Source: a virus. From it: 64,000 nt of DNA. Shown here in pieces: positions 43,387 through 55,256 of this stretch (the stretch's first letter is position 1; each line of letters starts with the position of its first letter). Below the pieces are notes generated by a model. It ran no database searches and had not been told where the DNA came from. It saw nothing but the letters and a program-made list of their open reading frames with translations. The DNA lies in the IMG/VR virus record IMGVR_UViG_3300020159_001814, positions 1-64,000 of that record; one strand, written 5' to 3'. The position numbers and the translations under genes were made by a program.

Positions 43387-43625
43387 ATATCTTCTTTATT
43401 TATTATTGTTCTTGTACCACCACTGAATAATAATATTTCATTTTCATTCAAAGGGTAGTAATATGTTATTTTTAATTCATCAATTTTATCAAAACAAAGT
43501 TCTTGTGTATTTGATTCAAAAATTTGATAGGGTGTTGCGGTTATACCATTTGTTTCTAACAAATCAATAACTTCCGTATTTGTGTATATTAATCTCCAAA
43601 TCATAATTAATAAGTTATTGTCCAA
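43383..43625 (-). CDS. hypothetical protein
   Basis: ORF track. Confidence 0.6.
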   Translation of the reverse strand: MDNNLLIMIWRLIYTNTEVIDLLETNGITATPYQIFESNTQELCFDKIDELKITYYYPLNENEILLFSGGTRTIINKEDI

Positions 43626-45043
43626 TTATAGGGTGACCCTGTTAAAAAGGATATTGCGGCTAAACCATTATATCCACCGCTCGATGAGTCAGGATCTGCG
43701 TTTGTTCCGCTTATATTTAAAGTAATGTTTGACCAACCTGTTGGGTTGTAAGTCGCATTTCCACTAAAATCCACTAATATGTGATTAACATCGGTAGTTG
43801 TCATATTGTTATTTTGTAAATCGATTCCCGCACGTCCTTGTGTAGTTCCAGAAACTAAAGTAGCGCCTGATAAACTAGTTAAGTCTATATAGTCTAAATT
43901 ACAACCATATAAACTAAATGCCCTACTACCTAAACCATTACTTTCGTTTTTAAAATATTGTGTAGATGTAGGTAACAATATATTTGTTAAACTACTGTTT
44001 CCATCAAGTCTTAAAATTGATGTTGATCCGGTTGTTGAAGCACCTAATTTTGTTAGGTTTCTTAAATCTAAGGTTCCGGTTAATTTACAATCGTTTGCCC
44101 TATATCGTGTAATATTATTTGGCGATGTTGCGTGTGTTATTCCAGTTAAATTAAAGTTAAACCAAACATCAAATTGCCCTCCTAACCCAGATAATGGCGT
44201 TAAATCTAAATTTCCTATTAGATTACAAGAATTTGCGAAATATGATGTAAAAATTTGTGATGATGGTCCGTGAGTAATTCCTGTTAAATTTGTACTATAT
44301 TGAACCCAAAATTGCCCACCTAAACCAGATAATGGCGTTAAATCTAACTTTCCTGTTAAATTACAAGAATTCGCTAAATATGATGTAAAAATTTGTGATG
44401 ATGGTCCGTGAGTTATCCCTGTTAAATTACTATTAGCACTAACCCAAAATTGACCTCCGAGTCCAGATAATGGCGTTAAATCTAAATTTCCTATTAGATT
44501 ACAAGAATTTGCTAAATATGATGAAATATTTTGTGATGATGGTCCGTGAGTTATCCCTGTTAAATTTGGATTATTATTAACTTGGAACTGTCCACCTAAA
44601 CCAGATAATGGTGTTAAATCTAAATTTCCTGTTAAATTACAAGAATAGGCAATATATGATGAAAAAATTTGTGATGATGGTCCGTTAGTAATTCCTGTTA
44701 AATTTGGGTTTGTATTGACTCTGAAGGTGCCTCTAAAACCAGATAATTGTGTTAAATCTAAATTACCATATATATTATCATTATCAAAAATAAAACTATT
44801 TGTATTCCTAAAACTATTAACCCTAATTTGGATTGTCCTAATATCGGTGTCTAATGTAAAACCGGTATATGTTAATCCATTTCCGGCGGTTTGTGTAATA
44901 TTTGTTCCATTATCTAATCTCCATGATACTCTCCCTCCCCCATCAAACCCTATTGTCGGTTCGAAAAAACTTGTTGACCCACTCTTTTGAAAAGTAAGGA
45001 TTTTACCTATATTATTTCTTGACGTGAATTGTTGCCTACTCAT
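43607..45043 (-). CDS. leucine-rich-repeat protein with 46-aa tandem units
   Basis: CNLxGNLDLTPLSGLGGQFxVxxNxNLTGITHGPSSQ repeated. Confidence 0.85.
   Translation of the reverse strand: MSRQQFTSRNNIGKILTFQKSGSTSFFEPTIGFDGGGRVSWRLDNGTNITQTAGNGLTYTGFTLDTDIRTIQIRVNSFRNTNSFIFDNDNIYGNLDLTQLSGFRGTFRVNTNPNLTGITNGPSSQIFSSYIAYSCNLTGNLDLTPLSGLGGQFQVNNNPNLTGITHGPSSQNISSYLANSCNLIGNLDLTPLSGLGGQFWVSANSNLTGITHGPSSQIFTSYLANSCNLTGKLDLTPLSGLGGQFWVQYSTNLTGITHGPSSQIFTSYFANSCNLIGNLDLTPLSGLGGQFDVWFNFNLTGITHATSPNNITRYRANDCKLTGTLDLRNLTKLGASTTGSTSILRLDGNSSLTNILLPTSTQYFKNESNGLGSRAFSLYGCNLDYIDLTSLSGATLVSGTTQGRAGIDLQNNNMTTTDVNHILVDFSGNATYNPTGWSNITLNISGTNADPDSSSGGYNGLAAISFLTGSPYNWTITY
44090..44770. repeat. ~5 near-identical 138-bp tandem repeats
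   Basis: CCAGATAAT anchor at 44187, 44325, 44463, 44601, 44739. Confidence 0.85.
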
Positions 45044-45053
45044 ATGTTAATTT

Positions 45054-45887
45054 TTATATATAATCATTACCAACTGTCCAATACATTATTGAGCCGTTAT
45101 ATGTGAACGTTAATATATCAGTTGCCCCGCCATTAGATGTTAGTACTACAGGTCCCCCACCATTTGCTACCTTATGTGTGCCTGACGCACCATTTACTTG
45201 ATTAAAAAATAAACTTCTTCCCCCAACACCGTCTTGTATTACTATCAAAGTCCCGTATTCACCATTTCTTACATTAATTAATGATAATGTTGTGTTTGCC
45301 GTTAGTGTTGCTTCATAATTTGTACTTAATCCGGAAACGTCCCAAACTACCGTTGATCCTGTTGACCCTATGTCGTTAAATGGGTTTATACTGACACCAC
45401 CACCAGACGTACCACTACTTCCACTTGTACCATTAATTCCTGATGTTCCATTAATTCCACTAGTTCCATTTATTCCTGATGTACCACTAGTTCCATTAAT
45501 TCCTGATGTACCACTAGTTCCATTTATTCCTGATGTACCACTAGTTCCATTAATTCCCGAAGTACCACTAGTTCCATTAATTCCGCTAGTTCCTGAAGTT
45601 CCATTAATTCCCGAAGTACCACTAGTTCCATTAATTCCCGAAGTACCACTAGTTCCATTAATTCCCGAAGTACCACTAGTTCCATTAATTCCCGAAGTAC
45701 CATTAATACCACTGGTGCCCGATCCGCCGGATGTACCACCAAAAATAGTTATAAGTTGTTGTAATTCTGCTTTATAAGATGACCCATCAGGGTTTTGTGA
45801 CGGGTCCCCAGTATAAACAATATGTATTAGGGTTGTTGGGGTAATTGCCGTTGATGCCGCTAATGTCCTGTCCGTTAATCTTGCCAT
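45054..45887 (-). CDS. collagen-like (Gly-X-Y) fibre protein with GTS/GIN repeats
   Basis: Long (GTS GTS GIN)n tract; C-terminal LIVIQDGVGGR...DILTF domain typical of phage fibre tips. Confidence 0.8.
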   Translation of the reverse strand: MARLTDRTLAASTAITPTTLIHIVYTGDPSQNPDGSSYKAELQQLITIFGGTSGGSGTSGINGTSGINGTSGTSGINGTSGTSGINGTSGTSGINGTSGTSGINGTSGTSGINGTSGTSGINGTSGTSGINGTSGTSGINGTSGINGTSGINGTSGSSGTSGGGVSINPFNDIGSTGSTVVWDVSGLSTNYEATLTANTTLSLINVRNGEYGTLIVIQDGVGGRSLFFNQVNGASGTHKVANGGGPVVLTSNGGATDILTFTYNGSIMYWTVGNDYI

Positions 45888-45907: not shown

Positions 45908-46189
45908 TTATTGAAATTTATATTCTTCACCATCTTGGAACTCAAATATTAATCCGTCTTGGAAAAGTTTATCTGAAACACTTAATGTTTCACAATACGT
46001 ACAATTATTATCATCTATTAATTTTATAGTATAAGTTTCATAAGTTTCATAAGTTTCAGGTAATATAAAACTATATGGTATGGTCGTTATTGTATCAATA
46101 TATTGACAAGTACCGTAACACGTATCACAAACCCATATGTGGTATGGTGAAGTTCCTAAAGTTATCGTATTTATTGTTACGTTTATCAT
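45908..46189 (-). CDS. single SprB-like domain small protein
   Basis: GTSPYHIWVCD...IKLIDDNNC. Confidence 0.65.
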   Translation of the reverse strand: MINVTINTITLGTSPYHIWVCDTCYGTCQYIDTITTIPYSFILPETYETYETYTIKLIDDNNCTYCETLSVSDKLFQDGLIFEFQDGEEYKFQ

Positions 46190-46207: not shown

Positions 46208-47803
46208 TTATTTACAAAATCCATTAACTTTACATTTTTGTGTTAAAGAACCTGTTTTATCATTAACCTCATAGATATAATCTTGGTATTTGATATAATC
46301 CACAGTTAATTTTCTTGTTAAACTACTATCCTTATACACATATATACCATCGGTTAATGTTTCTACACCGTATTCCGTATAGATTGTTATTGGTGATCCA
46401 AAGTTAGTCAATTCACAAACAGGACAAGAAATTGTATATTCACCTTTAACTTCCCAAGATTTAAACACAGGTGTTGGTGTTGGCTCAGGTGTAAAACATT
46501 CTATACAATCAACATATGTTGTTGCTGTTGTAGCAGTAAACACATCTTGGTTTGTTGCTATAAATCCTGTTGTTGGGTAATAACCAACAACATTTGTGAC
46601 ATAAACCCAACAATTACCATTATCATCTTTTAATACATTAGTTTCACAAAGATTTAGTGGTGGCGTTGCGGTTTGAACTATCATTGAATTATTAGTACAT
46701 GACGTAAATATAAATTGGGTTCCCATAGGATACGATGTTGGTGTTGGTGTCGGTGTTAGTGTTGCCGTTGGTGTTGGTGTCGGTGTTGCAGTTGGTGTTG
46801 GTGTCGGTGTAACACAAACACTACAATCACTAGTATATGCAGTAATTATTAATTCAAGATTACTATTTGTACTACTAAATAAATCTTTAGTGTATGTTAC
46901 ACATTTTATTTGGTCACTAATTACCGCCAAGAAAGTTGTACCAGTACTTAATGGTATACCGCTAAACACTATAGGTTCAGTAACGTAATATTTATTAAAC
47001 GTACCACATTCACTTAATTCTTTTGTTCTTGTACAAATAAATTTACCAGTATCTATTAAATAAGTAACACTATCCGCAGATGGCACAATAACGTTATAAC
47101 AAGGTGTTGGTGATGGTGTTGGTGATGGTGTTGGTGATGGTGTGATTTCTTCTGTTGATATATCGACAATAAACCCTTCACAAACATCGGGTGTTGGTGT
47201 TGGTGTTGGTGTAGGAGTTGGTGTTGCGGTTGGTGATGCTGTTGGTGATGGTGTAATACCACATTCTATTAATACATCAAAATCAAGTATAGAACAAGGG
47301 TCATATGGTGTTGGTGTAGGTACACATACTCCATTATATAAAATGGTCTCGTCAAGGTCGGGTGATGTTGATTCTGTCGGGTTTTGCCCAAAAAAATCAC
47401 ATTCACCACCTAAAGTTTCACTTAAACACCATTTTATACCATCATAAAAAATGTAACCATTGTTTGTTATTCCACTGTAATATGTATTAGTATTATAACT
47501 TCCCGCAAAAGTATATGACCCGTTATATCCAGTAAATGCACTTAAAGAAATATTAACGCAAAAATCTTCAGACCCACAATAGTCACTACAACCACCAGAA
47601 CCACAACCACCATTTGATATTGATACCCCGTCAAATATTACAGGTATACTACCGACACCACTAGACACTATAGTATAGCACCCATTTATTATGTTAGTAT
47701 CATCTGTAATTTCAAAACCATCACCGACGGTCGTACTATACGACCAACCCGTGGCACTATATACTAGATTATAACAACAACTACTTAAAACAACATTAGC
47801 CAT
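46208..47803 (-). CDS. Cys-rich modular protein with Pro-Thr/Ser mucin-like linkers
   Basis: Several [10 protein letters not shown] tracts. Confidence 0.8.
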
Positions 47804-47857
47804 TCAGATTTAAACTTTATTATATAAATAATCGAAAGTTTATTTTATTGAAGTGTT

Positions 47858-48652
47858 TTATGAGAATATGTTAAAATATTGTCTCCAATCTGATTTGACA
47901 ATATTGTAACTTTCGGGGTTTAGATTATAGCAAAAATCATAATACTTTTCTTCGCTACCAACAACACCTTGTTCTAAATACATGTCTATATACCAAATAA
48001 AGTCGGCAATTAATTTATCAATCGTATTATTGTTTGGCACAAAAAAACAACCACCGTGAATAAACCTATACTGTGAAAACAAATGAAAAACATAATCACC
48101 TAATGATACGGTATCTTGGTGATTAAAGAATGTTATTTTATCTGAATAACCGTTATTTATTTTTTCTAAATTAGGCCAGTTAGGTATTGGCTGATTTATT
48201 TCATGTCTCAGAACCCCAGCATCCGCCCAAATAAAAAAATCAGAATCAAAATGTTTTTTCATTATTGATTCTTTTATGTAAAAAAGTTTATTAAAAATTA
48301 CAATATTATATAATGGTTTAGTCATTTCTGGAACCCTAAAATGTATTTTATTTTTAAATTCTTCAGAATTCATTAAACTATTTACCTTTTCATAATACAT
48401 TTGATGAGCAACCAAGTCCTCAACTTTTCTTATTTCAAAAATAGTTTTTTCTAAATTAGGGTCACAAACCATTCTATTTTTTTTAATTTCATCGTATAAT
48501 TTTTCATCAGTATAAATAACCATTGGCATGTCGTACATTAATAGGGCTTTCATCCAGTGAAGATATGTACCATATGCTAATTCATATCCATCCCAAGTAT
48601 CCCTACCAATATCAAACAATGCCGTTACAATGACCGGTTTTTCTATTTTCAT
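47858..48652 (-). CDS. glycosyltransferase, HtrL/YibB (WlaTC)-like
   Basis: IVTALFDIGR, YNIVIFNK, FIWADAG, IHGGCF, SEE. Confidence 0.7.
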   Translation of the reverse strand: MKIEKPVIVTALFDIGRDTWDGYELAYGTYLHWMKALLMYDMPMVIYTDEKLYDEIKKNRMVCDPNLEKTIFEIRKVEDLVAHQMYYEKVNSLMNSEEFKNKIHFRVPEMTKPLYNIVIFNKLFYIKESIMKKHFDSDFFIWADAGVLRHEINQPIPNWPNLEKINNGYSDKITFFNHQDTVSLGDYVFHLFSQYRFIHGGCFFVPNNNTIDKLIADFIWYIDMYLEQGVVGSEEKYYDFCYNLNPESYNIVKSDWRQYFNIFS

Positions 48653-49896
48653 AATTTTCCTGTTAGTCTTTCACCCCAACCTTTTGATGTTGTGTGTGTC
48701 CATACAACCCATTCTGTTGGTTTTATTGTTGTATTAAATTCCCTCCAAACATTTACAAAATCCCCTTGTTTTGACAAAATGTTGTTTATTTCGTTTTTAT
48801 CGGCGTCTTTTCTAAATATTTCATTACCATTATCATCTAAAAATATTACGGCCCAAAAATCATAATCAGATTCTTTTAAACTACCTTTATATAGGTCAAT
48901 ACAATGTTTAAAAACAGTTGAAAAGCTGTTTACCCATTCGTCTTCAGTTTCATAATTATATGGGTTTGGTGGGTATTGTTTATTAATAGTGTATTGTTGT
49001 ACCGCTCTTTTTGAAAAAAGTAATCCGGCATATTTTTCATAATCTTTTAACGTTCTTTCCTTTCCAAATCCGTATATATCATCATGGCCTTCTTGCATTA
49101 TACCATCCATACCAAACAACATTCTATTAAGTAAATGGGCCTTTTCATTTTTTTTATACCATTCTTTATCGTCGTCCCATTGTTTAGTTCTACCGTTTCT
49201 TGTATATTCATGCCATATAACAACTTTATGTGGGTGAAATAAATCATACCCATGTGTATATGCTCTAACCGCTATTGATATTTCTTCGCCGTGAAAATAA
49301 AAATTAGGGTTATGTTGTACTTCTTTTGAAAATACTCCTAATGTAAAACAAAAATGTGCGGAATAGAATCTTGATGTAATTGGTTCTGTTAACGTTTCCC
49401 AATTTGGGATTGTCTCAGGTAAAAAGAATACCGCACCTTCGGGTATGAATCTATCAAATACCATTCTCCAAGGAACATTAACCCTACCTTCGGGATCATT
49501 TTGTGGATTATAAGACGAAACATATCCAGTTAAAAGTGGTTTTTTATGTCCTTTTTTTTGTAAATCAACAACCATGTTAATTAGTGTTTCATCCCAATTT
49601 TTTTCAAATCTCATGTGTGAATCAATCTGCAAAGTATAATCTTCACCATCATATAACTGTTGGACCATATTTCTTGCCCAACAAACCCCTTTAGCATCTA
49701 AATATGGGACATCAACAATCCTAAATCTTTCATCATTTTCATATTCACTAAGGTCGTCAAATTTATCATCTATGTGATATTGTCGACATATACCAAATAC
49801 TAAACTTTCAGGATTTTTTGCGTTCAATAAACAATTCTTTATTGTTGGTATCAATTCGGGGTCCCTATAAGACGCGATTTGTATAAAAATTTTCAT
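48649..49896 (-). CDS. GT60-like polypeptide/hydroxyproline alpha-GlcNAc transferase (GlcNAc family)
   Basis: IFIQIASYRDPE, GVCWAR, LQIDSHMRF..WD, FHGEE, RAYTHGYD. Confidence 0.85.
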   Translation of the reverse strand: MKIFIQIASYRDPELIPTIKNCLLNAKNPESLVFGICRQYHIDDKFDDLSEYENDERFRIVDVPYLDAKGVCWARNMVQQLYDGEDYTLQIDSHMRFEKNWDETLINMVVDLQKKGHKKPLLTGYVSSYNPQNDPEGRVNVPWRMVFDRFIPEGAVFFLPETIPNWETLTEPITSRFYSAHFCFTLGVFSKEVQHNPNFYFHGEEISIAVRAYTHGYDLFHPHKVVIWHEYTRNGRTKQWDDDKEWYKKNEKAHLLNRMLFGMDGIMQEGHDDIYGFGKERTLKDYEKYAGLLFSKRAVQQYTINKQYPPNPYNYETEDEWVNSFSTVFKHCIDLYKGSLKESDYDFWAVIFLDDNGNEIFRKDADKNEINNILSKQGDFVNVWREFNTTIKPTEWVVWTHTTSKGWGERLTGKL

Positions 49897-49965
49897 ACTA
49901 CCAATATATATAAAAAAAAATTTGTGTAAATAATATTTAATATCTACGTATAACAGTCGGTGTTG

Positions 49966-50367
49966 TTATATATTTAATTCAAAAGTATAACCTGACAAAC
50001 TACATAAAATAGGTTCAATAGTAGGTGTGGGTGTAGGTGTAGGTGTTGCGGTTGGTGTTATTTTATTTAATTCAAAACTATATCCAGACATACTACATAA
50101 AACAGGTGTTGGTGTAGGTGTTGGTGTTGGTGTAGGTGTTGGTGTTGGTTCGCAAGGGGAATCAATCAAATCTACGCACCCATAATTATCAACAATCCTA
50201 ACTTTTAATAACCCTTCTTTAGGAAAATAATTATCAGAGTTAATAAAAACATTTGGTGGTATTGAAGTTACTCCCGATATATAAAAACAACCGGTTAAAT
50301 CCCAATTACAAAGATATATGTCATACGGACCGACCCCATTTGTTACACCTGTTATTTCAATAATCAT
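49966..50367 (-). CDS. SprB-like domain plus Pro-Thr repeats
   Basis: GVGPYDIYLC...VRIVDNYGC; two PTPTPT tracts; duplicated LCSxSGYxFELN. Confidence 0.75.
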   Translation of the reverse strand: MIIEITGVTNGVGPYDIYLCNWDLTGCFYISGVTSIPPNVFINSDNYFPKEGLLKVRIVDNYGCVDLIDSPCEPTPTPTPTPTPTPTPVLCSMSGYSFELNKITPTATPTPTPTPTIEPILCSLSGYTFELNI

Positions 50368-50368
50368 T

Positions 50369-50656
50369 TTATATCCAAACTAATCCATCCCCACTTTCAG
50401 TGGTTATTATGAGTTCGTTCTCAGTTAAAATAAAGAAGGTATCTAATGTACAATAAACATATTTAAAAGTAAAACACCCAGTACTATCAACCAATTTTAT
50501 TATCAATGTTTGTGCAGTAGAAAAAAAGGAATTTAAGGTGTATGTTCCACCTGTAGGTCCAAGCAAAAAACAAGTATTCATATATTCGTCACAAACATAA
50601 AAACTATAGGGTGGTGTGCCACCTGTTTCACCTGATATGATAAGTTGACTTGTCAT
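50369..50656 (-). CDS. single SprB-like domain small protein
   Basis: GGTPPYSFYVCD...IKLVDSTGC. Confidence 0.7.
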   Translation of the reverse strand: MTSQLIISGETGGTPPYSFYVCDEYMNTCFLLGPTGGTYTLNSFFSTAQTLIIKLVDSTGCFTFKYVYCTLDTFFILTENELIITTESGDGLVWI

Positions 50657-52905
50657 AATATAAAGTATGTTGAGTCATGAATTGTGTATGCACTTGTAGT
50701 CCCTGTGTAACTATATATTAAGAATTCACTTGATGTTGTTATACCGGTTAATGATCTAGTGTAAATTTCAAAATCCCTTCTATCTGATGGGTTATTTAAT
50801 TTTACAGTATAATAGTAATTATACCTTCCATAATAACCTAAATTATTTGATGATGCTTGGTAAGTAAAACCAGATGTATCAAAATTAAATGTTTTACCAC
50901 TTAATGAATTTACTAATGTTGGTGATGTTCCGCTATAAACAATTGTTTCATTTATATATTTTGGTATATATATGTATCCTACTGATGTCGTTCCTGTTTG
51001 TGATGTTGTGCCGCTGCACAGAGCATAAACATAAGCAACAGGATTTGTATATCTAGAACTAACAGTTGTTGTTCCAGTATAATTATTTGTTGTCCCTGTA
51101 GATTGTGTATTAATAGTATTAACAACTGATAATACATTTCCTTGTATACTACAATTAGGGTCATATGTTAAACCATCATAAACCGTCGGCATTGTAAATC
51201 TTAAAGTATAATCACTACCAGTTATGCCAGTTGTAACAACTGATCCAGTATGTAAAAGGTATTGTTTAACTGTAGACCCATCTGAACCACATATACTGGT
51301 ACCTGTGGTGGATGGTAGTGACAAATAAAGATATCTGTAATATCTAATATCTGTTGGATCACTTGGAGTCCCGCTCCATGGGCCTGATGAAGTAGCACAA
51401 ATACCTGTGGTGGTTGTTGTACCAGTAATTGCCTTTAAATATGAATTATAATATGCGTTAAAATCCGTAAAATCTGTAAACTGAATGTCTATTATACCTA
51501 ATGTTCCTCCACTAATATATTTTTTAAATGTTATTGTTCCTGTGGAGCTAGCAGCACAGATGTCAGGTGTGGTATAATAAGGGTTAGTTGCAGATGCTTG
51601 GATTGTATTTAAATATAAAAAATTACCCACCCCTATTAAATTATTAACACCGGAACCGTACATGCTAACATCATAGTAAGGCACATTATTACTTAAGATA
51701 AAAGACCCGTCAGTTGCAATATATTTACTAAAATCATCAGCACTTCTACTACAAGCACTAACACTAAATGATACTGTATTGGAATTACATCCACCGGTAA
51801 TTGTTGTGATTGTTGATGCGGAAATTTTATAAGGAAAATTATTTAAAATACAAGTATCTTGTGAAAAACCACTTAAACATGTAAAATAAAAATCCCAATT
51901 AGTTTCATTGTTAAACTGATTTGGTATGACTTCAATTCTTAAAGAGTCTCCTATGTTTCTAGTTAAACCAGTTAAACATGTCACCTTTTTAAGGTATGTT
52001 GCTTGTGAAATAGTATCGGCACTTTTTGGAAATTTATTTAAACTAAAATCGGATCTAATTAAGTTAGACCCAACTGTTATGTCTTCAATTAAAAGTTCTT
52101 CAGAATATGCGGAACCAATATATGTTAATCTTAATCTATCTTCAACAGCAAATCCTTTAAACTTCCAAGCGAAATAATCAGTAATACCCGTAAAAAGAAA
52201 TGTTGCTTCCAAAGCCTGTGGTGTCGATCCAACAGATGCTGATAAAAAATTTACCCTATGTTCATAATATGGGTTATCACTACTATCACCATTACCACAA
52301 GTAAACGCGTCTACAGTTACTGTTGTTAAATCAAAACATTCTAATTCTGCGGGGATATTACCTGTGCCCCCTGTTTGTGAAAAAGTTAGACCACTTAATT
52401 TTATTTTATCAATGATAGGTACATATGTACCTGCTTGTGCAAATATAGAACTAGTGCCCGTTAATGGATGCGTAAAAGAATATGGTGTAAATTCAGAACC
52501 CTTTCCCGAAACATAAACAGGATTTGTAGTATCCCCTGTTTCATACCAAAATATTCTATAATCAGTAATGTTTGATTCGCAAGCACCTGTAAGGTTACCA
52601 GCAACAATTCTACCAACAGTCGATGCACTATAACTACTAAAATCCAATTCACAACTAACACATAAATCATTAGACTGCACAAAAGTATCACAATAACACC
52701 CTGTCGATATATCTAATATTCTTATTTGTGTTGTTCCGTTGGGTACTTCAATATAATACGGACATTCATTGCCGGTTATTGCTGATAAATTTATACTACT
52801 TTGTATTGGGGTAGTAAACCCATCATAATCACTATATATATTCATAACCCCACCAAGTGGTGTTGTTCCTGTGTAAGATAAACATGTTACTGCCGAAAAT
52901 GACAT
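50653..52905 (-). CDS. Thr/Ser/Gly-rich virion structural protein
   Basis: 750 aa beta-rich composition, in structural module. Confidence 0.7.
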   Translation of the reverse strand: MSFSAVTCLSYTGTTPLGGVMNIYSDYDGFTTPIQSSINLSAITGNECPYYIEVPNGTTQIRILDISTGCYCDTFVQSNDLCVSCELDFSSYSASTVGRIVAGNLTGACESNITDYRIFWYETGDTTNPVYVSGKGSEFTPYSFTHPLTGTSSIFAQAGTYVPIIDKIKLSGLTFSQTGGTGNIPAELECFDLTTVTVDAFTCGNGDSSDNPYYEHRVNFLSASVGSTPQALEATFLFTGITDYFAWKFKGFAVEDRLRLTYIGSAYSEELLIEDITVGSNLIRSDFSLNKFPKSADTISQATYLKKVTCLTGLTRNIGDSLRIEVIPNQFNNETNWDFYFTCLSGFSQDTCILNNFPYKISASTITTITGGCNSNTVSFSVSACSRSADDFSKYIATDGSFILSNNVPYYDVSMYGSGVNNLIGVGNFLYLNTIQASATNPYYTTPDICAASSTGTITFKKYISGGTLGIIDIQFTDFTDFNAYYNSYLKAITGTTTTTGICATSSGPWSGTPSDPTDIRYYRYLYLSLPSTTGTSICGSDGSTVKQYLLHTGSVVTTGITGSDYTLRFTMPTVYDGLTYDPNCSIQGNVLSVVNTINTQSTGTTNNYTGTTTVSSRYTNPVAYVYALCSGTTSQTGTTSVGYIYIPKYINETIVYSGTSPTLVNSLSGKTFNFDTSGFTYQASSNNLGYYGRYNYYYTVKLNNPSDRRDFEIYTRSLTGITTSSEFLIYSYTGTTSAYTIHDSTYFIL

Positions 52906-52928
52906 AATTTTATTTTATTAATTTTAGT

Positions 52929-55256
52929 TTATGGGCAAGGTATTTCTTCTATACAACTCACATCATACACTATTGTTAATGATAAATTTACTTCAACATC
53001 CGCCAAAGGATTTGAGTCACCGTCACAAGATGATATGATTTGTAATGTATTGTTAATAGTATCTAATGTGTATGATTCAACATCACTTATACCTGATAAT
53101 ATGTTTTCTATTGTTTGTTTCCATAATAAATCTGATGGTACGTCGGTGTTCGTTGATCCAGTATAAAAACTTTCGGTATATGATATTCCACTTATTTCTA
53201 AATTACATATGTATTCCGCAGAATTCAAACTACACCCAGTGTATCCGTCAGTTATGTCAAGATAACCTTCACCCAACATTTCTAAAAACCCTCTTTTAGC
53301 CCCTGTAGTTGTTGTAAATAAATTTTCACATATGTTATAAACACCATAACTACTAACTATATTTGTTAAACAATTAATACTAAAAGGTAATGTCGCAGTA
53401 CATCCGTTTGAATCTGTAACAATAACAGTGTATGTTCCGGCAGTAAGTCCTGTCACAGTACTACCTGTTTGTGAACAACAGACATTTTCAGACCAATCAT
53501 ATTCAAAGGTTGGTTTACCTTCATATATAACAACCTCCGCAGTTCCGTCATCCCCATTAACACAATCATTTGTTACAATATTTGCAACCAAATTACCAGC
53601 AGTTGTTACATTAATGTCTTTTTTTACTGAACACCCTTGTTCATCCGTAACCGTAACCGTATATAACCCCTCGGTTAAGTTATTAAAGGTATATGATGTC
53701 AAATTAGTATCTAATATTGTTTGACCATCACTTAAAAGGTAGTCTAAAACACCCGTATATCCAGTACCAACATCAATTTTAATAAATCCATTCGAAGAAA
53801 AGCAAGTCGCTCCACTTGTTGTTGCTGTAAAATCAAATTTTTGTACAGAACTAATATTTAAAAATGTACTATATGAACATTCTGTACCTGATCCAGAAAT
53901 ACTTAATAGGTATGTATCGTTTGGTAAATTATTAAAAGTGTAATTTTGATTTTGAGATACATTACCATATAATTGATTAGTATTTTGTCCTGATAGTGCG
54001 TACGCGTAATACCCACTTAACCCTTGTATTTCAACATAAACTGACCCGTTATTAATATCACAATTTGAATTCGTAATGACAGTGTTAACAACATTAAACC
54101 CATTTACAGGACTTAAAAACCCACCGAGAATCGTCTCACAAAAATTAGCATCCCTAACAACCACACTATAACCACCACTAGACAAACCAGTTATCGAAAA
54201 CGTGTCAGATAATGTGTATCCTACTTGTGATGTACTTGCCGAATAATAAAAAGGTACAGTTCCACCTGTTAATGTATAATTTAAAGTCCCATCAGAAGAA
54301 AAACAAGACGGATTATCCGAAGTTAGTAACCCTAAACCTAAAGGTTGTGCCTGCCCTATAGATTCATTTTTTGTTGTCGAGCAACCTAAACTATCAGTTA
54401 CAGTACAAGAATATGTTCCTATTGTTAATCCCGTAATTAATTGTGTTGTTTCACCGTTTGACCATAAGTATGTATACGGACCATTTCCAGTAATACCGGT
54501 TATGGCTAATTTACCTTTATCTATTACACATGTTGATGTGTTTACTTTCCAGAACCCAAAATCGACACTGGTGCTTGCCGAAACTATGACATTTTCTGTG
54601 TCTGCAGTTGTTGATCCATAGTCGTATATAGTCGCATAATAAATACCGTCACTTAGATTACTAACCAAATATGGGAAAGTATTTGTGGTGTATAACCCAT
54701 AAAATGAATTATCCCTATAAACAACAATATTATAAGGGCTGGCTGATGATGTTGCACTTAAACTAAAAGAACCGTTATTACCACCACATGTTGTTCCACT
54801 AACATTATATATATTAGCATTAAAACAATTACTGATGTTAACATTAATATATAATTCATTATTTTGTAACCCTAACGTATCATTTAACCTAAAAACATAA
54901 GTACCACCTGTAAGTCCGGTAAAATTAAATGGGCCGTTAGCCGTTTGTCCACTTAAAGTTCCAGGAATAACATTATCCACAGTATAAGGTAGTGTCCCAC
55001 CAAAACCATTTATTGTTAAATTACCGTACCCGCTATCACAAATCCCCGTAACTGTGAAATTATAACTTAAAGGTCCGTAATTACAACTATCTGTACATGC
55101 ACTTGTTGGTTCTAAGTACACCCCTACGGCCGAACCTGAGTATATTACGTCAACACACACACTTTCAAGGCCAGGTGATAAACCTGTTTGATTTAAACCA
55201 CAACAGTCTATATAATTATAGTACCCACCTAATGTAAAACCTGATACACAAGCCAT
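52929..55256 (-). CDS. multi-SprB-repeat structural/adhesin protein
   Basis: GNGPYTYLWSNG...CTVTDSLGC; YTVTVTDEQGC; YTVIVTDSNGC. Confidence 0.8.
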   Translation of the reverse strand: MACVSGFTLGGYYNYIDCCGLNQTGLSPGLESVCVDVIYSGSAVGVYLEPTSACTDSCNYGPLSYNFTVTGICDSGYGNLTINGFGGTLPYTVDNVIPGTLSGQTANGPFNFTGLTGGTYVFRLNDTLGLQNNELYINVNISNCFNANIYNVSGTTCGGNNGSFSLSATSSASPYNIVVYRDNSFYGLYTTNTFPYLVSNLSDGIYYATIYDYGSTTADTENVIVSASTSVDFGFWKVNTSTCVIDKGKLAITGITGNGPYTYLWSNGETTQLITGLTIGTYSCTVTDSLGCSTTKNESIGQAQPLGLGLLTSDNPSCFSSDGTLNYTLTGGTVPFYYSASTSQVGYTLSDTFSITGLSSGGYSVVVRDANFCETILGGFLSPVNGFNVVNTVITNSNCDINNGSVYVEIQGLSGYYAYALSGQNTNQLYGNVSQNQNYTFNNLPNDTYLLSISGSGTECSYSTFLNISSVQKFDFTATTSGATCFSSNGFIKIDVGTGYTGVLDYLLSDGQTILDTNLTSYTFNNLTEGLYTVTVTDEQGCSVKKDINVTTAGNLVANIVTNDCVNGDDGTAEVVIYEGKPTFEYDWSENVCCSQTGSTVTGLTAGTYTVIVTDSNGCTATLPFSINCLTNIVSSYGVYNICENLFTTTTGAKRGFLEMLGEGYLDITDGYTGCSLNSAEYICNLEISGISYTESFYTGSTNTDVPSDLLWKQTIENILSGISDVESYTLDTINNTLQIISSCDGDSNPLADVEVNLSLTIVYDVSCIEEIPCP

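Follow-up and report, generated by a model that had tools for sequence, protein, structure and literature searches.

A candidate mucin-type O-glycosylation cassette between genes for Pro-Thr-linker proteins in a freshwater jumbo phage

An uncultured freshwater jumbo phage probably sugar-coats its own tail appendages. The window analysed, a stretch of 64,000 nucleotides (IMG/VR record IMGVR_UViG_3300020159_001814, positions 1 to 64,000 of a 77,792-bp, 26%-complete contig), encodes two glycosyltransferases (GTs) directly between two genes whose products carry proline-threonine (PT) tracts. The reading that we favour, with reasonable confidence, is that these enzymes carry out mucin-type O-glycosylation in the cytoplasm, on the PT-linker fibre proteins of the phage itself.

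Results

The four open reading frames on which the first-pass annotation had built its proposal were recovered at exactly the coordinates it gave, all on the minus strand. These and the neighbouring features are as follows.

45054..45887, minus strand: collagen-like (GTS/GIN repeat) protein, 277 aa, possible further acceptor (PF01391, 5e-16; tail-fibre PHROGs; 27-bp repeat x9.1)
46208..47803, minus strand: 531-aa Cys-rich multi-module protein, fibre-like, with four PT/PS linkers joining its modules; candidate acceptor
46736..46810, minus strand: PT tract of the 531-aa protein (aa 332-356)
47102..47143, minus strand: [14 protein letters not shown] tract of the 531-aa protein (aa 221-234)
47189..47254, minus strand: aa 184-205 of the 531-aa protein, its longest PT tract, encoded by an imperfect hexanucleotide repeat
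47858..48652, minus strand: HtrL_YibB-family GT-A protein, 264 aa, proposed second (extending) transferase
48649..49896, minus strand: GT60-type (PF11397) soluble glycosyltransferase, 415 aa, proposed initiating polypeptide HexNAc-transferase
49966..50367, minus strand: 133-aa candidate acceptor, a small SprB-like N-terminal module followed by two units of PT tract plus LCSxSGYxFELN
50023..50046, minus strand: second PT tract of the 133-aa protein (aa 108-115)
50104..50151, minus strand: [16 protein letters not shown] tract of the 133-aa protein (aa 73-88)
50369..55256, minus strand: fibre-like proteins (95, 750 and 775 aa) rich in Ser/Thr (24-27%) and bearing SprB-like modules

The two GT genes overlap by 4 bases, the start of the HtrL-type gene lying over the GT60 stop, and the cassette genes are co-directional with the surrounding block, with gaps of 1-70 bp or overlaps. 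Proteins encoded in the block 39560-67762 average 19% Ser plus Thr, versus 11.5% in the remaining contig; the products of genes adjoining the cassette reach 20-31%, and the two enzymes 8-10%. Baseplate-wedge genes (phrog_219, phrog_261) lie just upstream of the block, at contig 67.8-70.2 kb, and weak virion and tail-fibre PHROG matches occur within it. The earlier description of this region as a Thr/Ser-rich structural operon thus holds for composition, while its structural character is suggested by the baseplate-wedge genes and the weak PHROG matches. The 95-, 750- and 775-aa upstream proteins, for which neither PHROGs nor Pfam gave a family, form part of the setting and may themselves be acceptors.

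The 415-aa enzyme matched the Pfam family PF11397 'GlcNAc' at 1e-69 (236.2 bits, cut-off 21; profile positions 2-43 and 95-349), in agreement with the GT60-like assignment first made from the sequence alone, and phrog_24687 at 1e-168; it contains IQIASYRD, QIDSHMRF and HGEE. It consists of a GT27-related GT-A catalytic domain (aa 1-~300) with a DxH metal motif and a distal His, and a conserved beta-rich C-terminal domain (aa ~326-414; about 110 aa) outside the coverage of the Pfam model. D92, H94 and H229 were invariant across 40 homologues. The fold resembles that of the mucin-initiating ppGalNAc-transferases of GT27 (human GalNAc-T2/T4/T10/T12, Toxoplasma GalNAc-T3), but these are Golgi enzymes whereas the phage protein is cytoplasmic, and at about 12% identity, with no sequence-level match, the likeness is at fold level only. 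Neither a ricin-type lectin domain nor any other Pfam domain was detected in the Pfam search at E ≤ 0.01, and no PDB sequence matched, even with a profile. The enzyme resembles protein-directed rather than polysaccharide-directed GT-A enzymes. Characterised PF11397 members are polypeptide alpha-GlcNAc-transferases acting on mucin Thr or Skp1 hydroxyproline (Hyp) (PMC8724618, PMC6939170, PMC3769586), and characterised enzymes of both GT60 and GT27 favour Thr within Pro-rich mucin-like peptides. The family is large (4,601 clusters at 50% identity), and many bacteria encode homologues.

The 264-aa neighbour matched PF09612 HtrL_YibB over its full length (2e-23, 83.7 bits, cut-off 24.1), as the first reading had assigned it, and has a GT-A fold. 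As an equivalog of E. coli YibB it was rejected (NCBIfam TIGR02192, 82.9 bits versus a cut-off of 264.9). Among 80 bacterial loci, at least 16, spread over several phyla, have GT60 next to HtrL, and the two are fused within a single protein family (P0061). Most bacterial GT60-type homologues have no obvious PT neighbour.

PT tracts were present, as first described, in the products flanking both GT genes. At least three consecutive [TSAE]P dipeptides were found in only two ORFs of the 77,792-bp contig, and these are the immediate flanks of the GT pair; by a combinatorial estimate, random placement of two PT genes alongside about 84 others would put them in exactly these positions about 3 times in 10,000. 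In the 531-aa protein, which has neither a TM segment nor a signal peptide, the tracts (aa 184-205, 221-234, 332-356 and 438-445) are conserved in position across 11 homologues, with many P and T invariant, and its orthologue lies directly 3' of the cassette at every cassette size (0-6 genes). Homologues of the 133-aa protein, whose coding region overlaps a 93-bp tandem duplication (49964-50149), directly precede GT60 in many relatives. For the flanking proteins no homologue was found in cultured phages, and neither PHROGs nor Pfam gave them a structural match of their own; their synteny suggests that they are virion fibres.

We then compared 59 distinct related phage loci. A PT gene occupied the position immediately upstream of GT60 (-1) in 31/57 loci, versus 35/184 (19%) at other upstream positions (odds ratio 5.1, Fisher 8e-7, a P-value that overstates independence because related loci share ancestry). 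The cassette from GT60 to HtrL had at least one PT flank in 33/42 loci and two in 11/42, so that the co-occurrence of GT and PT-repeat genes anticipated by the first-pass annotation is borne out across relatives. The upstream PT proteins fall into nine sequence-distinct families. In two (near-)complete relatives PT ORFs make up only about 2% of genes, yet the -1 gene of GT60 is a PT gene in both. Reciprocally, where a PT531-type gene lay away from any GT, GT60 was still present elsewhere in the genome in 5/5 related genomes. The -1 gene is not a PT gene in about 40% of related loci, and PT tracts are also common in viral contigs outside the lineage, so PT linkers do not need a GT60-type enzyme.

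These comparisons bear on where in the virion the sugar would be placed. The enzymes might glycosylate virion proteins at sites other than the PT linkers, such as Ser/Thr-rich surfaces, collagen-like repeats or sites in fibre, baseplate or capsid, with the PT neighbours merely sharing a tail-fibre module. Ser/Thr-richness does extend over the whole block, and PT tracts occur in 17-41% of genes at -2 to -4, which indicates that the module itself is PT-rich. Paralogues of the 277-aa collagen-like protein lie directly upstream of GT60 in some relatives (a collagen-like gene is at -1 in four), the GT of Xanthomonas phage XacN1 is not adjacent to its PT protein, and the known mycobacteriophage sites (cited in PMC12619734) are the C-termini of capsid and tail-tube subunits. 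However, relative to other positions in the module the -1 gene retains a five-fold enrichment, the PT tracts are conserved in position with Thr and Pro invariant, and the preference of characterised GT60 and GT27 enzymes is for Thr in just such peptides. We consider other virion acceptors unlikely and the PT tracts the better candidates among the Ser/Thr-rich parts.

The content of the cassette varies among relatives. Across the 59 loci GT60 is followed by 0-10 soluble glycan-building genes, the last usually encoding an HtrL-domain protein; over all relatives, between 0 and about 21 additional soluble enzymes occupy this slot, and the largest cassette has 23 genes. They include GT10, GT34, GT32, GT61 and GT25-like transferases, DUF3431, HAD-nucleotidyltransferase, NDP-sugar epimerase, a rhamnosyl-O-methyltransferase-like domain and WcbI-like genes. 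A TM-like segment (hydrophobic 19-mer) was found in 0/220 cassette genes of distinct relatives and in 1/23 genes of the largest cassette; the same scan detected multi-TM genes elsewhere in these genomes.

Enzymes of this kind might instead modify a host envelope glycan (LPS/LOS core, capsule or a teichoic-type polymer), for example to block superinfection or change a receptor, and the HtrL/YibB genes of bacterial LOS loci might have a similar role. Such genes do occur in the LPS/LOS core loci of E. coli, Salmonella, Campylobacter and Acinetobacter (PMC4172580), phrog_24687 is filed under 'moron, auxiliary metabolic gene and host takeover', GT25 and WcbI-like genes are typical of polysaccharide loci, and soluble enzymes could still act on cytoplasmic-face intermediates. 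Against this, the 220 cassette genes include no flippase, polymerase, lipid-carrier-priming transferase or TM protein of any kind, the genes run co-directionally inside the baseplate-distal structural block, and the initiating enzyme is more like protein-directed GT-A enzymes. Modification of the host envelope is in our judgement improbable.

The acceptor within the PT tracts could also be Hyp, formed by a phage or host prolyl 4-hydroxylase before GlcNAc addition, as by PhyA and then Gnt1 on Skp1. The GT60 member Gnt1 is specific for Hyp (PMC6939170), three environmental proteins (P0002, P0003, P0005) fuse four PF11397 domains with AhpC and 2OG-Fe(II) P4H-like domains, and one 98%-complete relative has two PF13640 genes. 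These lie about 200 kb from its cassette, however, and PF13640 is missing from the present contig and also from two relatives that are 100% complete and encode both GT60 and PT proteins. Although a hydroxylase of the host could still act, Hyp is a distinctly doubtful acceptor.

We know of no DNA-modifying member of PF11397, and glycosylation of hydroxymethyl-pyrimidine bases in phage DNA against restriction is very improbable: a gene of the thymidylate-synthase/hydroxymethylase family is absent from the 98%-complete relative and from the 26%-complete contig, the single such gene of a 100%-complete relative scores as an ordinary ThyA (322.7 bits versus an equivalog cut-off of 327), and the gene context is structural, even though the enzymes are soluble, DNA polymerase, RNase H and a NUDIX hydrolase are encoded within a few genes of the homologue in XacN1 and Xoo-sp13, and multi-GT arrays of other phages build glycans on DNA (Pyle et al., 2024, cited in PMC12619734). 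For host LPS and DNA alike, the alternative targets already named in the first annotation, the hallmarks looked for were not in evidence (TM proteins in the cassettes, a hydroxymethylase in near-complete relatives).

Discussion

Mucin-type glycosylation of the PT linkers could proceed as follows. The soluble GT60-type enzyme (48649-49896), metal-dependent through its DxH motif and distal His, would attach the first sugar, most probably GlcNAc with UDP-GlcNAc as donor, to hydroxyls of Thr, and more rarely of Ser, within the Pro-Thr linkers of the fibre-like proteins 46208-47803 and 49966-50367; neighbouring Ser/Thr-rich or collagen-like proteins may be modified too. Transfer would take place in the host cytoplasm, before or during tail assembly, and the HtrL_YibB-type GT-A enzyme (47858-48652) would then add a second sugar. 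In relatives the slot would supply further enzymes (other GTs, sugar methyltransferases, sugar-nucleotide enzymes), so that the glycans on a shared scaffold would differ from one phage of the lineage to another. The original proposal of a priming and an extending enzyme acting on mucin-like linkers is upheld for the enzyme families, the fold and the co-occurrence with PT genes; the acceptor protein and residue, the donor sugar, the order of action with HtrL as extender, and the placement on virion fibres are inferred, and the suggested benefits (stiffness, protease resistance, host mimicry) might follow if the linkers are glycosylated.

To our knowledge, chemical proof of phage-encoded virion glycosylation is limited to a few mycobacteriophages, the evidence for XacN1 being stained bands. 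The Xanthomonas jumbo phages XacN1 (ORF334) and Xoo-sp13 (gp304) encode full-length homologues, 46-47% identical, in a similar synteny of baseplate wedge, giant PT-tract protein (3313 aa in XacN1, with C-terminal PT tracts), GT genes and replication genes. There the GT gene is separated from that of the PT protein by about 9 kb, reads from the opposite strand, lies beside replication genes and has a carbamoyltransferase and a GT9-like gene as companions in place of HtrL. XacN1 virions contain at least two glycoproteins, seen as periodate-Schiff-stained bands, whose modification the authors of that study ascribed tentatively to ORF328/ORF334 (PMC5852040).

In mycobacteriophages Che8, Corndog and Myrna, GTs that the phages encode act on virion proteins inside the cytoplasm of the host cell (Freeman et al., 2023, cited in PMC12619734), and a cluster F1 mycobacteriophage has an HtrL_YibB-annotated gene near GTs (PMC10453261). 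The modified sites are at the C-termini of capsid and tail-tube proteins, and neither a GT60-type initiator nor PT linkers are reported for these phages. Chlorovirus PBCV-1 (A64R) also encodes soluble GTs, but it is a eukaryotic virus with atypical N-linked glycans on its major capsid protein. In keeping with virus-encoded virion glycosylation of this sort, the present GTs are soluble, with no TM segments, and lie among structural genes, downstream of baseplate-wedge genes. With the HtrL/YibB proteins of LPS/LOS core loci it shares PF09612 and an association with glycan-building genes, whereas here the partner is a protein-type initiating GT.

The protist GT60 enzymes (T. cruzi TcOGNT-2, Dictyostelium Golgi pp-alphaGlcNAcT and Gnt1) belong to the same HMM family and have the DxH motif and distal His. 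Like the cytoplasmic Gnt1 of the Skp1 pathway the phage enzyme is soluble, and like the mucin-type members it has Thr/Pro-rich candidate acceptors, here encoded next to it. It differs from the protist enzymes in its beta-rich C-terminal domain, its bacteriophage/bacterial origin and the lack of a consistent prolyl hydroxylase partner.

More speculatively, jumbo phages (freshwater and marine) and many bacteria may hold a very large prokaryotic branch of GT60/GT27, new to characterisation, which in the phages would head an exchangeable island with as many as some 23 soluble genes, placing strain-specific glycans on Pro-Thr tail stalks in the host cytoplasm. We put this forward tentatively, as a protein-borne, O-antigen-like viral serotype locus and a possible source of the eukaryotic mucin-initiating enzymes. 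If the glycosylation reading holds, mucin-like glycoprotein appendages built by self-encoded enzymes would be a feature of hundreds of abundant freshwater jumbo phages (327 IMG/VR relatives at the level searched), and a variable cassette between conserved flanks would imply diversifying selection on the glycan itself. Glycan variability would bear on host recognition, on resistance to proteases and grazers, and on phage-phage or phage-defence interactions. The system would represent soluble, lipid-carrier-free O-glycosylation in a prokaryotic cytoplasm, of interest for glyco-engineering, and the nearest relatives of the eukaryotic mucin-initiating enzymes would be found in phages and bacteria.

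Two overlapping enzyme genes within a Ser/Thr-rich block

The window takes in nucleotides 1 to 64,000 of an IMG/VR viral contig, 77,792 bp long, whose completeness CheckV put at ~26%; this implies a phage genome of roughly 300 kb, and related records reach 294,914 and 304,365 bp. GC content is ~30%, and nearly every gene is encoded on the minus strand. T4-like replication/recombination genes occupy the lower window (SbcC-like, primase, exonuclease, RuvC-like), and past the window end are baseplate-wedge genes (phrog_219, phrog_261), ribonucleotide reductase and a DnaB-like helicase. Between the baseplate-wedge and RuvC-like genes runs a co-directional block of large proteins without family assignment (contig 39560–67762), with a mean Ser+Thr content of 19% vs 11.5% in the rest of the contig; SprB-repeat, collagen-like and leucine-rich-repeat-like proteins are among its products. 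A megablast comparison of the region with cultured phages matched nothing. The same was true of tblastn with the conserved 734-aa and 982-aa neighbour proteins, so that annotation gives no confirmation of their putative virion role. Scans for sigma-70 promoters and for terminators gave no signal above shuffled sequence, and a scan for the Bacteroidota -7 motif TANNTTTG likewise stayed at shuffle level.

Features of the block around the enzyme pair (window coordinates)
43607–45043, minus strand: 478-aa protein of near-identical ~46-aa units (NLTGITHGPSSQ..SCNLxGNLDLTPLSGLGGQF) that differ at a few positions
45054–45887, minus strand: collagen-like protein with GTS/GIN triplets (27-bp repeat, 9.1 copies, 91% matches)
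45908–46189, 49966–50367 and 50369–50656, minus strand: three small paralogous proteins with an N-terminal 'G(T/G)xPY..(V/L)C....C' module, like a single SprB repeat; the second is the 133-aa PT protein
46208–47803, minus strand: 531-aa PT protein
47858–48652, minus strand: HtrL_YibB-type enzyme, 264 aa (PF09612 HtrL_YibB, 2e-23)
48649–49896, minus strand: GT60-type enzyme, 415 aa (Pfam PF11397 'GlcNAc', 1e-69; phrog_24687, 1e-168)
48649–48921: conserved beta-rich C-terminal domain of the GT60-type protein (aa ~326–414), outside the Pfam model

All four ORFs described in a first-pass annotation, two glycosyltransferase genes between two genes for PT-repeat proteins, were recovered at its coordinates, and the HMM matches listed agree with its GT60-like and HtrL/YibB-like assignments. 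The two enzyme genes share four bases. Sequence and fold tests both placed the 415-aa product in GT60. Against PDB sequences, phmmer with either enzyme and a 40-sequence GT profile returned 0 matches; the likeness to GT27 and GT6/GT8 is therefore one of predicted folds alone. The beta-rich C-terminal domain is shared by the phage homologues and by many of the bacterial homologues, and may be an acceptor-binding module in the place that the lectin domain takes in GT27 enzymes.

PT tracts in the genes that flank the enzymes

With a PT tract defined as at least three consecutive [TSAE]P dipeptides, only two ORFs in the entire contig contained one, and these are the two direct flanks of the enzyme pair. 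In the DNA, the tracts correspond to imperfect hexanucleotide repeats. In the 133-aa protein, a 93-bp tandem duplication has doubled a '[PT tract]-LCSxSGYxFELN' unit, and in the 531-aa family the tract positions are conserved between Cys-rich modules, with many tract Pro and Thr residues invariant. At two loci where GT60 is the only cassette gene and HtrL is missing (L065 and L070), the 531-aa orthologue has non-PT sequence in place of its third long PT linker (columns 365–392 of A3, the orthologue alignment).

The proposed co-occurrence of these glycosyltransferases with PT-repeat genes was also seen among relatives: the gene directly upstream of GT60 contained a PT tract in 31/57 loci vs 35/184 genes at positions -2 to -8 (odds ratio 5.1, Fisher 8e-7), figures that are descriptive rather than independent tests because the loci share ancestry. 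The upstream PT proteins fell into nine sequence-distinct families. At least one cassette flank was PT in 33 of 42 loci, and both were in 11 of these 42. PT-tract genes numbered 7/377 and 8/348 in two (near-)complete genomes, each time including the gene directly upstream of GT60. Searching for the 531-aa protein with a single sequence returned 0 loci; its family was recovered only after a switch to an alignment query, and comprised close relatives with GT60 adjoining and distant PT-bearing relatives without GT60 within 10 kb. GT60 was present elsewhere in all five whole records searched (5/5), with an HtrL-domain gene just downstream in four.

Other neighbours showed related patterns. The 'G(T/G)xPY..(V/L)C....C' module also occurs at the N-terminus of many relatives' PT proteins upstream of GT60. 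Since collagen-like paralogues lie directly upstream of GT60 in several relatives, the collagen-like protein may be another glycosylation target. The 478-aa repeat protein appears, from its repeat units, to be like a leucine-rich-repeat receptor-binding protein.

Variable cassettes between conserved flanks

IMG/VR held 327 GT60-type relatives at the level searched, and 80 loci were analysed, representing 59 distinct GT sequences. The GT60-type gene was followed by 0 to 10 co-directional genes, the last usually encoding an HtrL-domain protein, which stood alone (~264 aa) in 9 loci and formed the N-terminal half of ~556- or 780-aa proteins in 36. Sampled cassette genes encoded GT10, GT34, GT32, GT61 and GT25-like transferases, DUF3431, a HAD-nucleotidyltransferase fusion, nucleotidyltransferases, NDP-sugar epimerase/dehydratase, WcbI and a rhamnosyl-O-methyltransferase-like domain. 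In the clade that possesses a 531-aa orthologue, this gene directly follows the cassette at 0, 1, 4 or 6 cassette genes. The cassette is a variable island with conserved flanks on both sides.

Largest cassette
G001 (98%-complete 294.9-kb relative), 59,548–79,969, loci L149–L150: GT60 and an HtrL-domain gene around 21 further co-directional genes, 20.4 kb

Ten genes of this cassette were sampled; among them were nucleotidyltransferases, NDP-sugar epimerase/dehydratase, WcbI, a uridine-kinase-family protein and GT61- and GT25-like transferases. For a phage, this is a very large glycan island, with products that appear to be soluble throughout. G001 and two further relatives, G004 and G005, form a freshwater lineage (257–304 kb) with low GC, SprB-type repeats and many GT genes. 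These traits fit the 'moraphages', which are aquatic, up to 307 kb, have predicted Bacteroidota hosts and carry GT orthogroups in their core (PMC12619734).

Cultured phages with homologues were limited to four jumbo phages of Xanthomonas and Stenotrophomonas (42–47% identity). In XacN1, the baseplate wedge is followed by a 3313-aa protein whose PT tracts lie at residues 3090–3160; next come GT9-like, carbamoyltransferase and homologue (ORF334) genes, and after these RNase H and DNA polymerase; gene order in Xoo-sp13 is similar. XacN1 virions contain at least two periodate-Schiff-stained glycoproteins, reported as bands without protein assignment, and its authors proposed ORF328 and ORF334 as the enzymes (PMC5852040).

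Bacterial and environmental homologues

The GT60-type family is widespread in bacterial genomes (at least 559 matches), including cultured Sphingobacterium, Cupriavidus, Niabella, Tunturiibacter and Paraherbaspirillum. Bacterial copies (loci L165–L244) are often in tandem or adjoin an HtrL-domain gene. GT60 and HtrL genes adjoin each other in at least 16 of 80 bacterial loci (Bacteroidota, Gemmatimonadota, Acidobacteriota, Pseudomonadota, Binatia), and one protein family, P0061, has both domains fused; together these argue for a functional link of the two enzymes independent of phage lineage. The nearest bacterial matches (~65% identity, GC 0.34) come from MAG contigs assigned to Saprospiraceae; they may point to the host or represent mis-binned phage sequence. 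PT adjacency is suggestive at a few bacterial loci (L183, L186, L213, L181, L235); we left it out of the support, given that these are raw counts and that high-GC bacteria often have PT/AP linkers.

Three environmental proteins of 1641–2461 aa (P0002, P0003, P0005) each combine four PF11397 domains with AhpC/TSA and 2OG-Fe(II) prolyl-hydroxylase-like domains. This domain content looks like that of a machine for hydroxylation and glycosylation fused into one chain, similar to the Skp1 pathway.

Acceptor of the enzyme pair

Modification of virion proteins at sites other than the PT linkers is a possibility with which the data are also compatible. An acceptor hydroxyproline with an obligatory prolyl-hydroxylase step has low probability: the environmental proteins in which four GT60 domains are joined to P4H-like ones favour it, as do two distant P4H-like genes in one relative, but a P4H-like gene is absent from the contig and from two complete relatives. 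Service in lipid-linked host polysaccharide synthesis is likewise improbable, since a hydrophobic 19-mer was found in none of 220 cassette genes, whereas multi-TM genes were detected elsewhere in the same genomes. Glycosylation of DNA is also unlikely, given that a 98%-complete relative is without a thymidylate-synthase-family gene and that in a 100%-complete relative the only family member has the score of an ordinary thymidylate synthase.

Virion glycosylation by virus-encoded enzymes is in itself already known; our literature search found no publication on GT60-type enzymes in phages or on a tie to PT linkers. The gene arrangement noted in the first-pass annotation is real, and its mucin-type O-glycosylation reading is the best available, with the chemistry predicted: by analogy, the module would work like GT60 and GT27 initiation of mucin glycans. 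We consider it rather probable that the enzyme pair constitutes a phage-encoded, soluble module for mucin-type O-glycosylation, with the minimal complement of two enzymes, and that its targets are most likely the Pro-Thr linkers in baseplate-distal fibre proteins of the phage itself.
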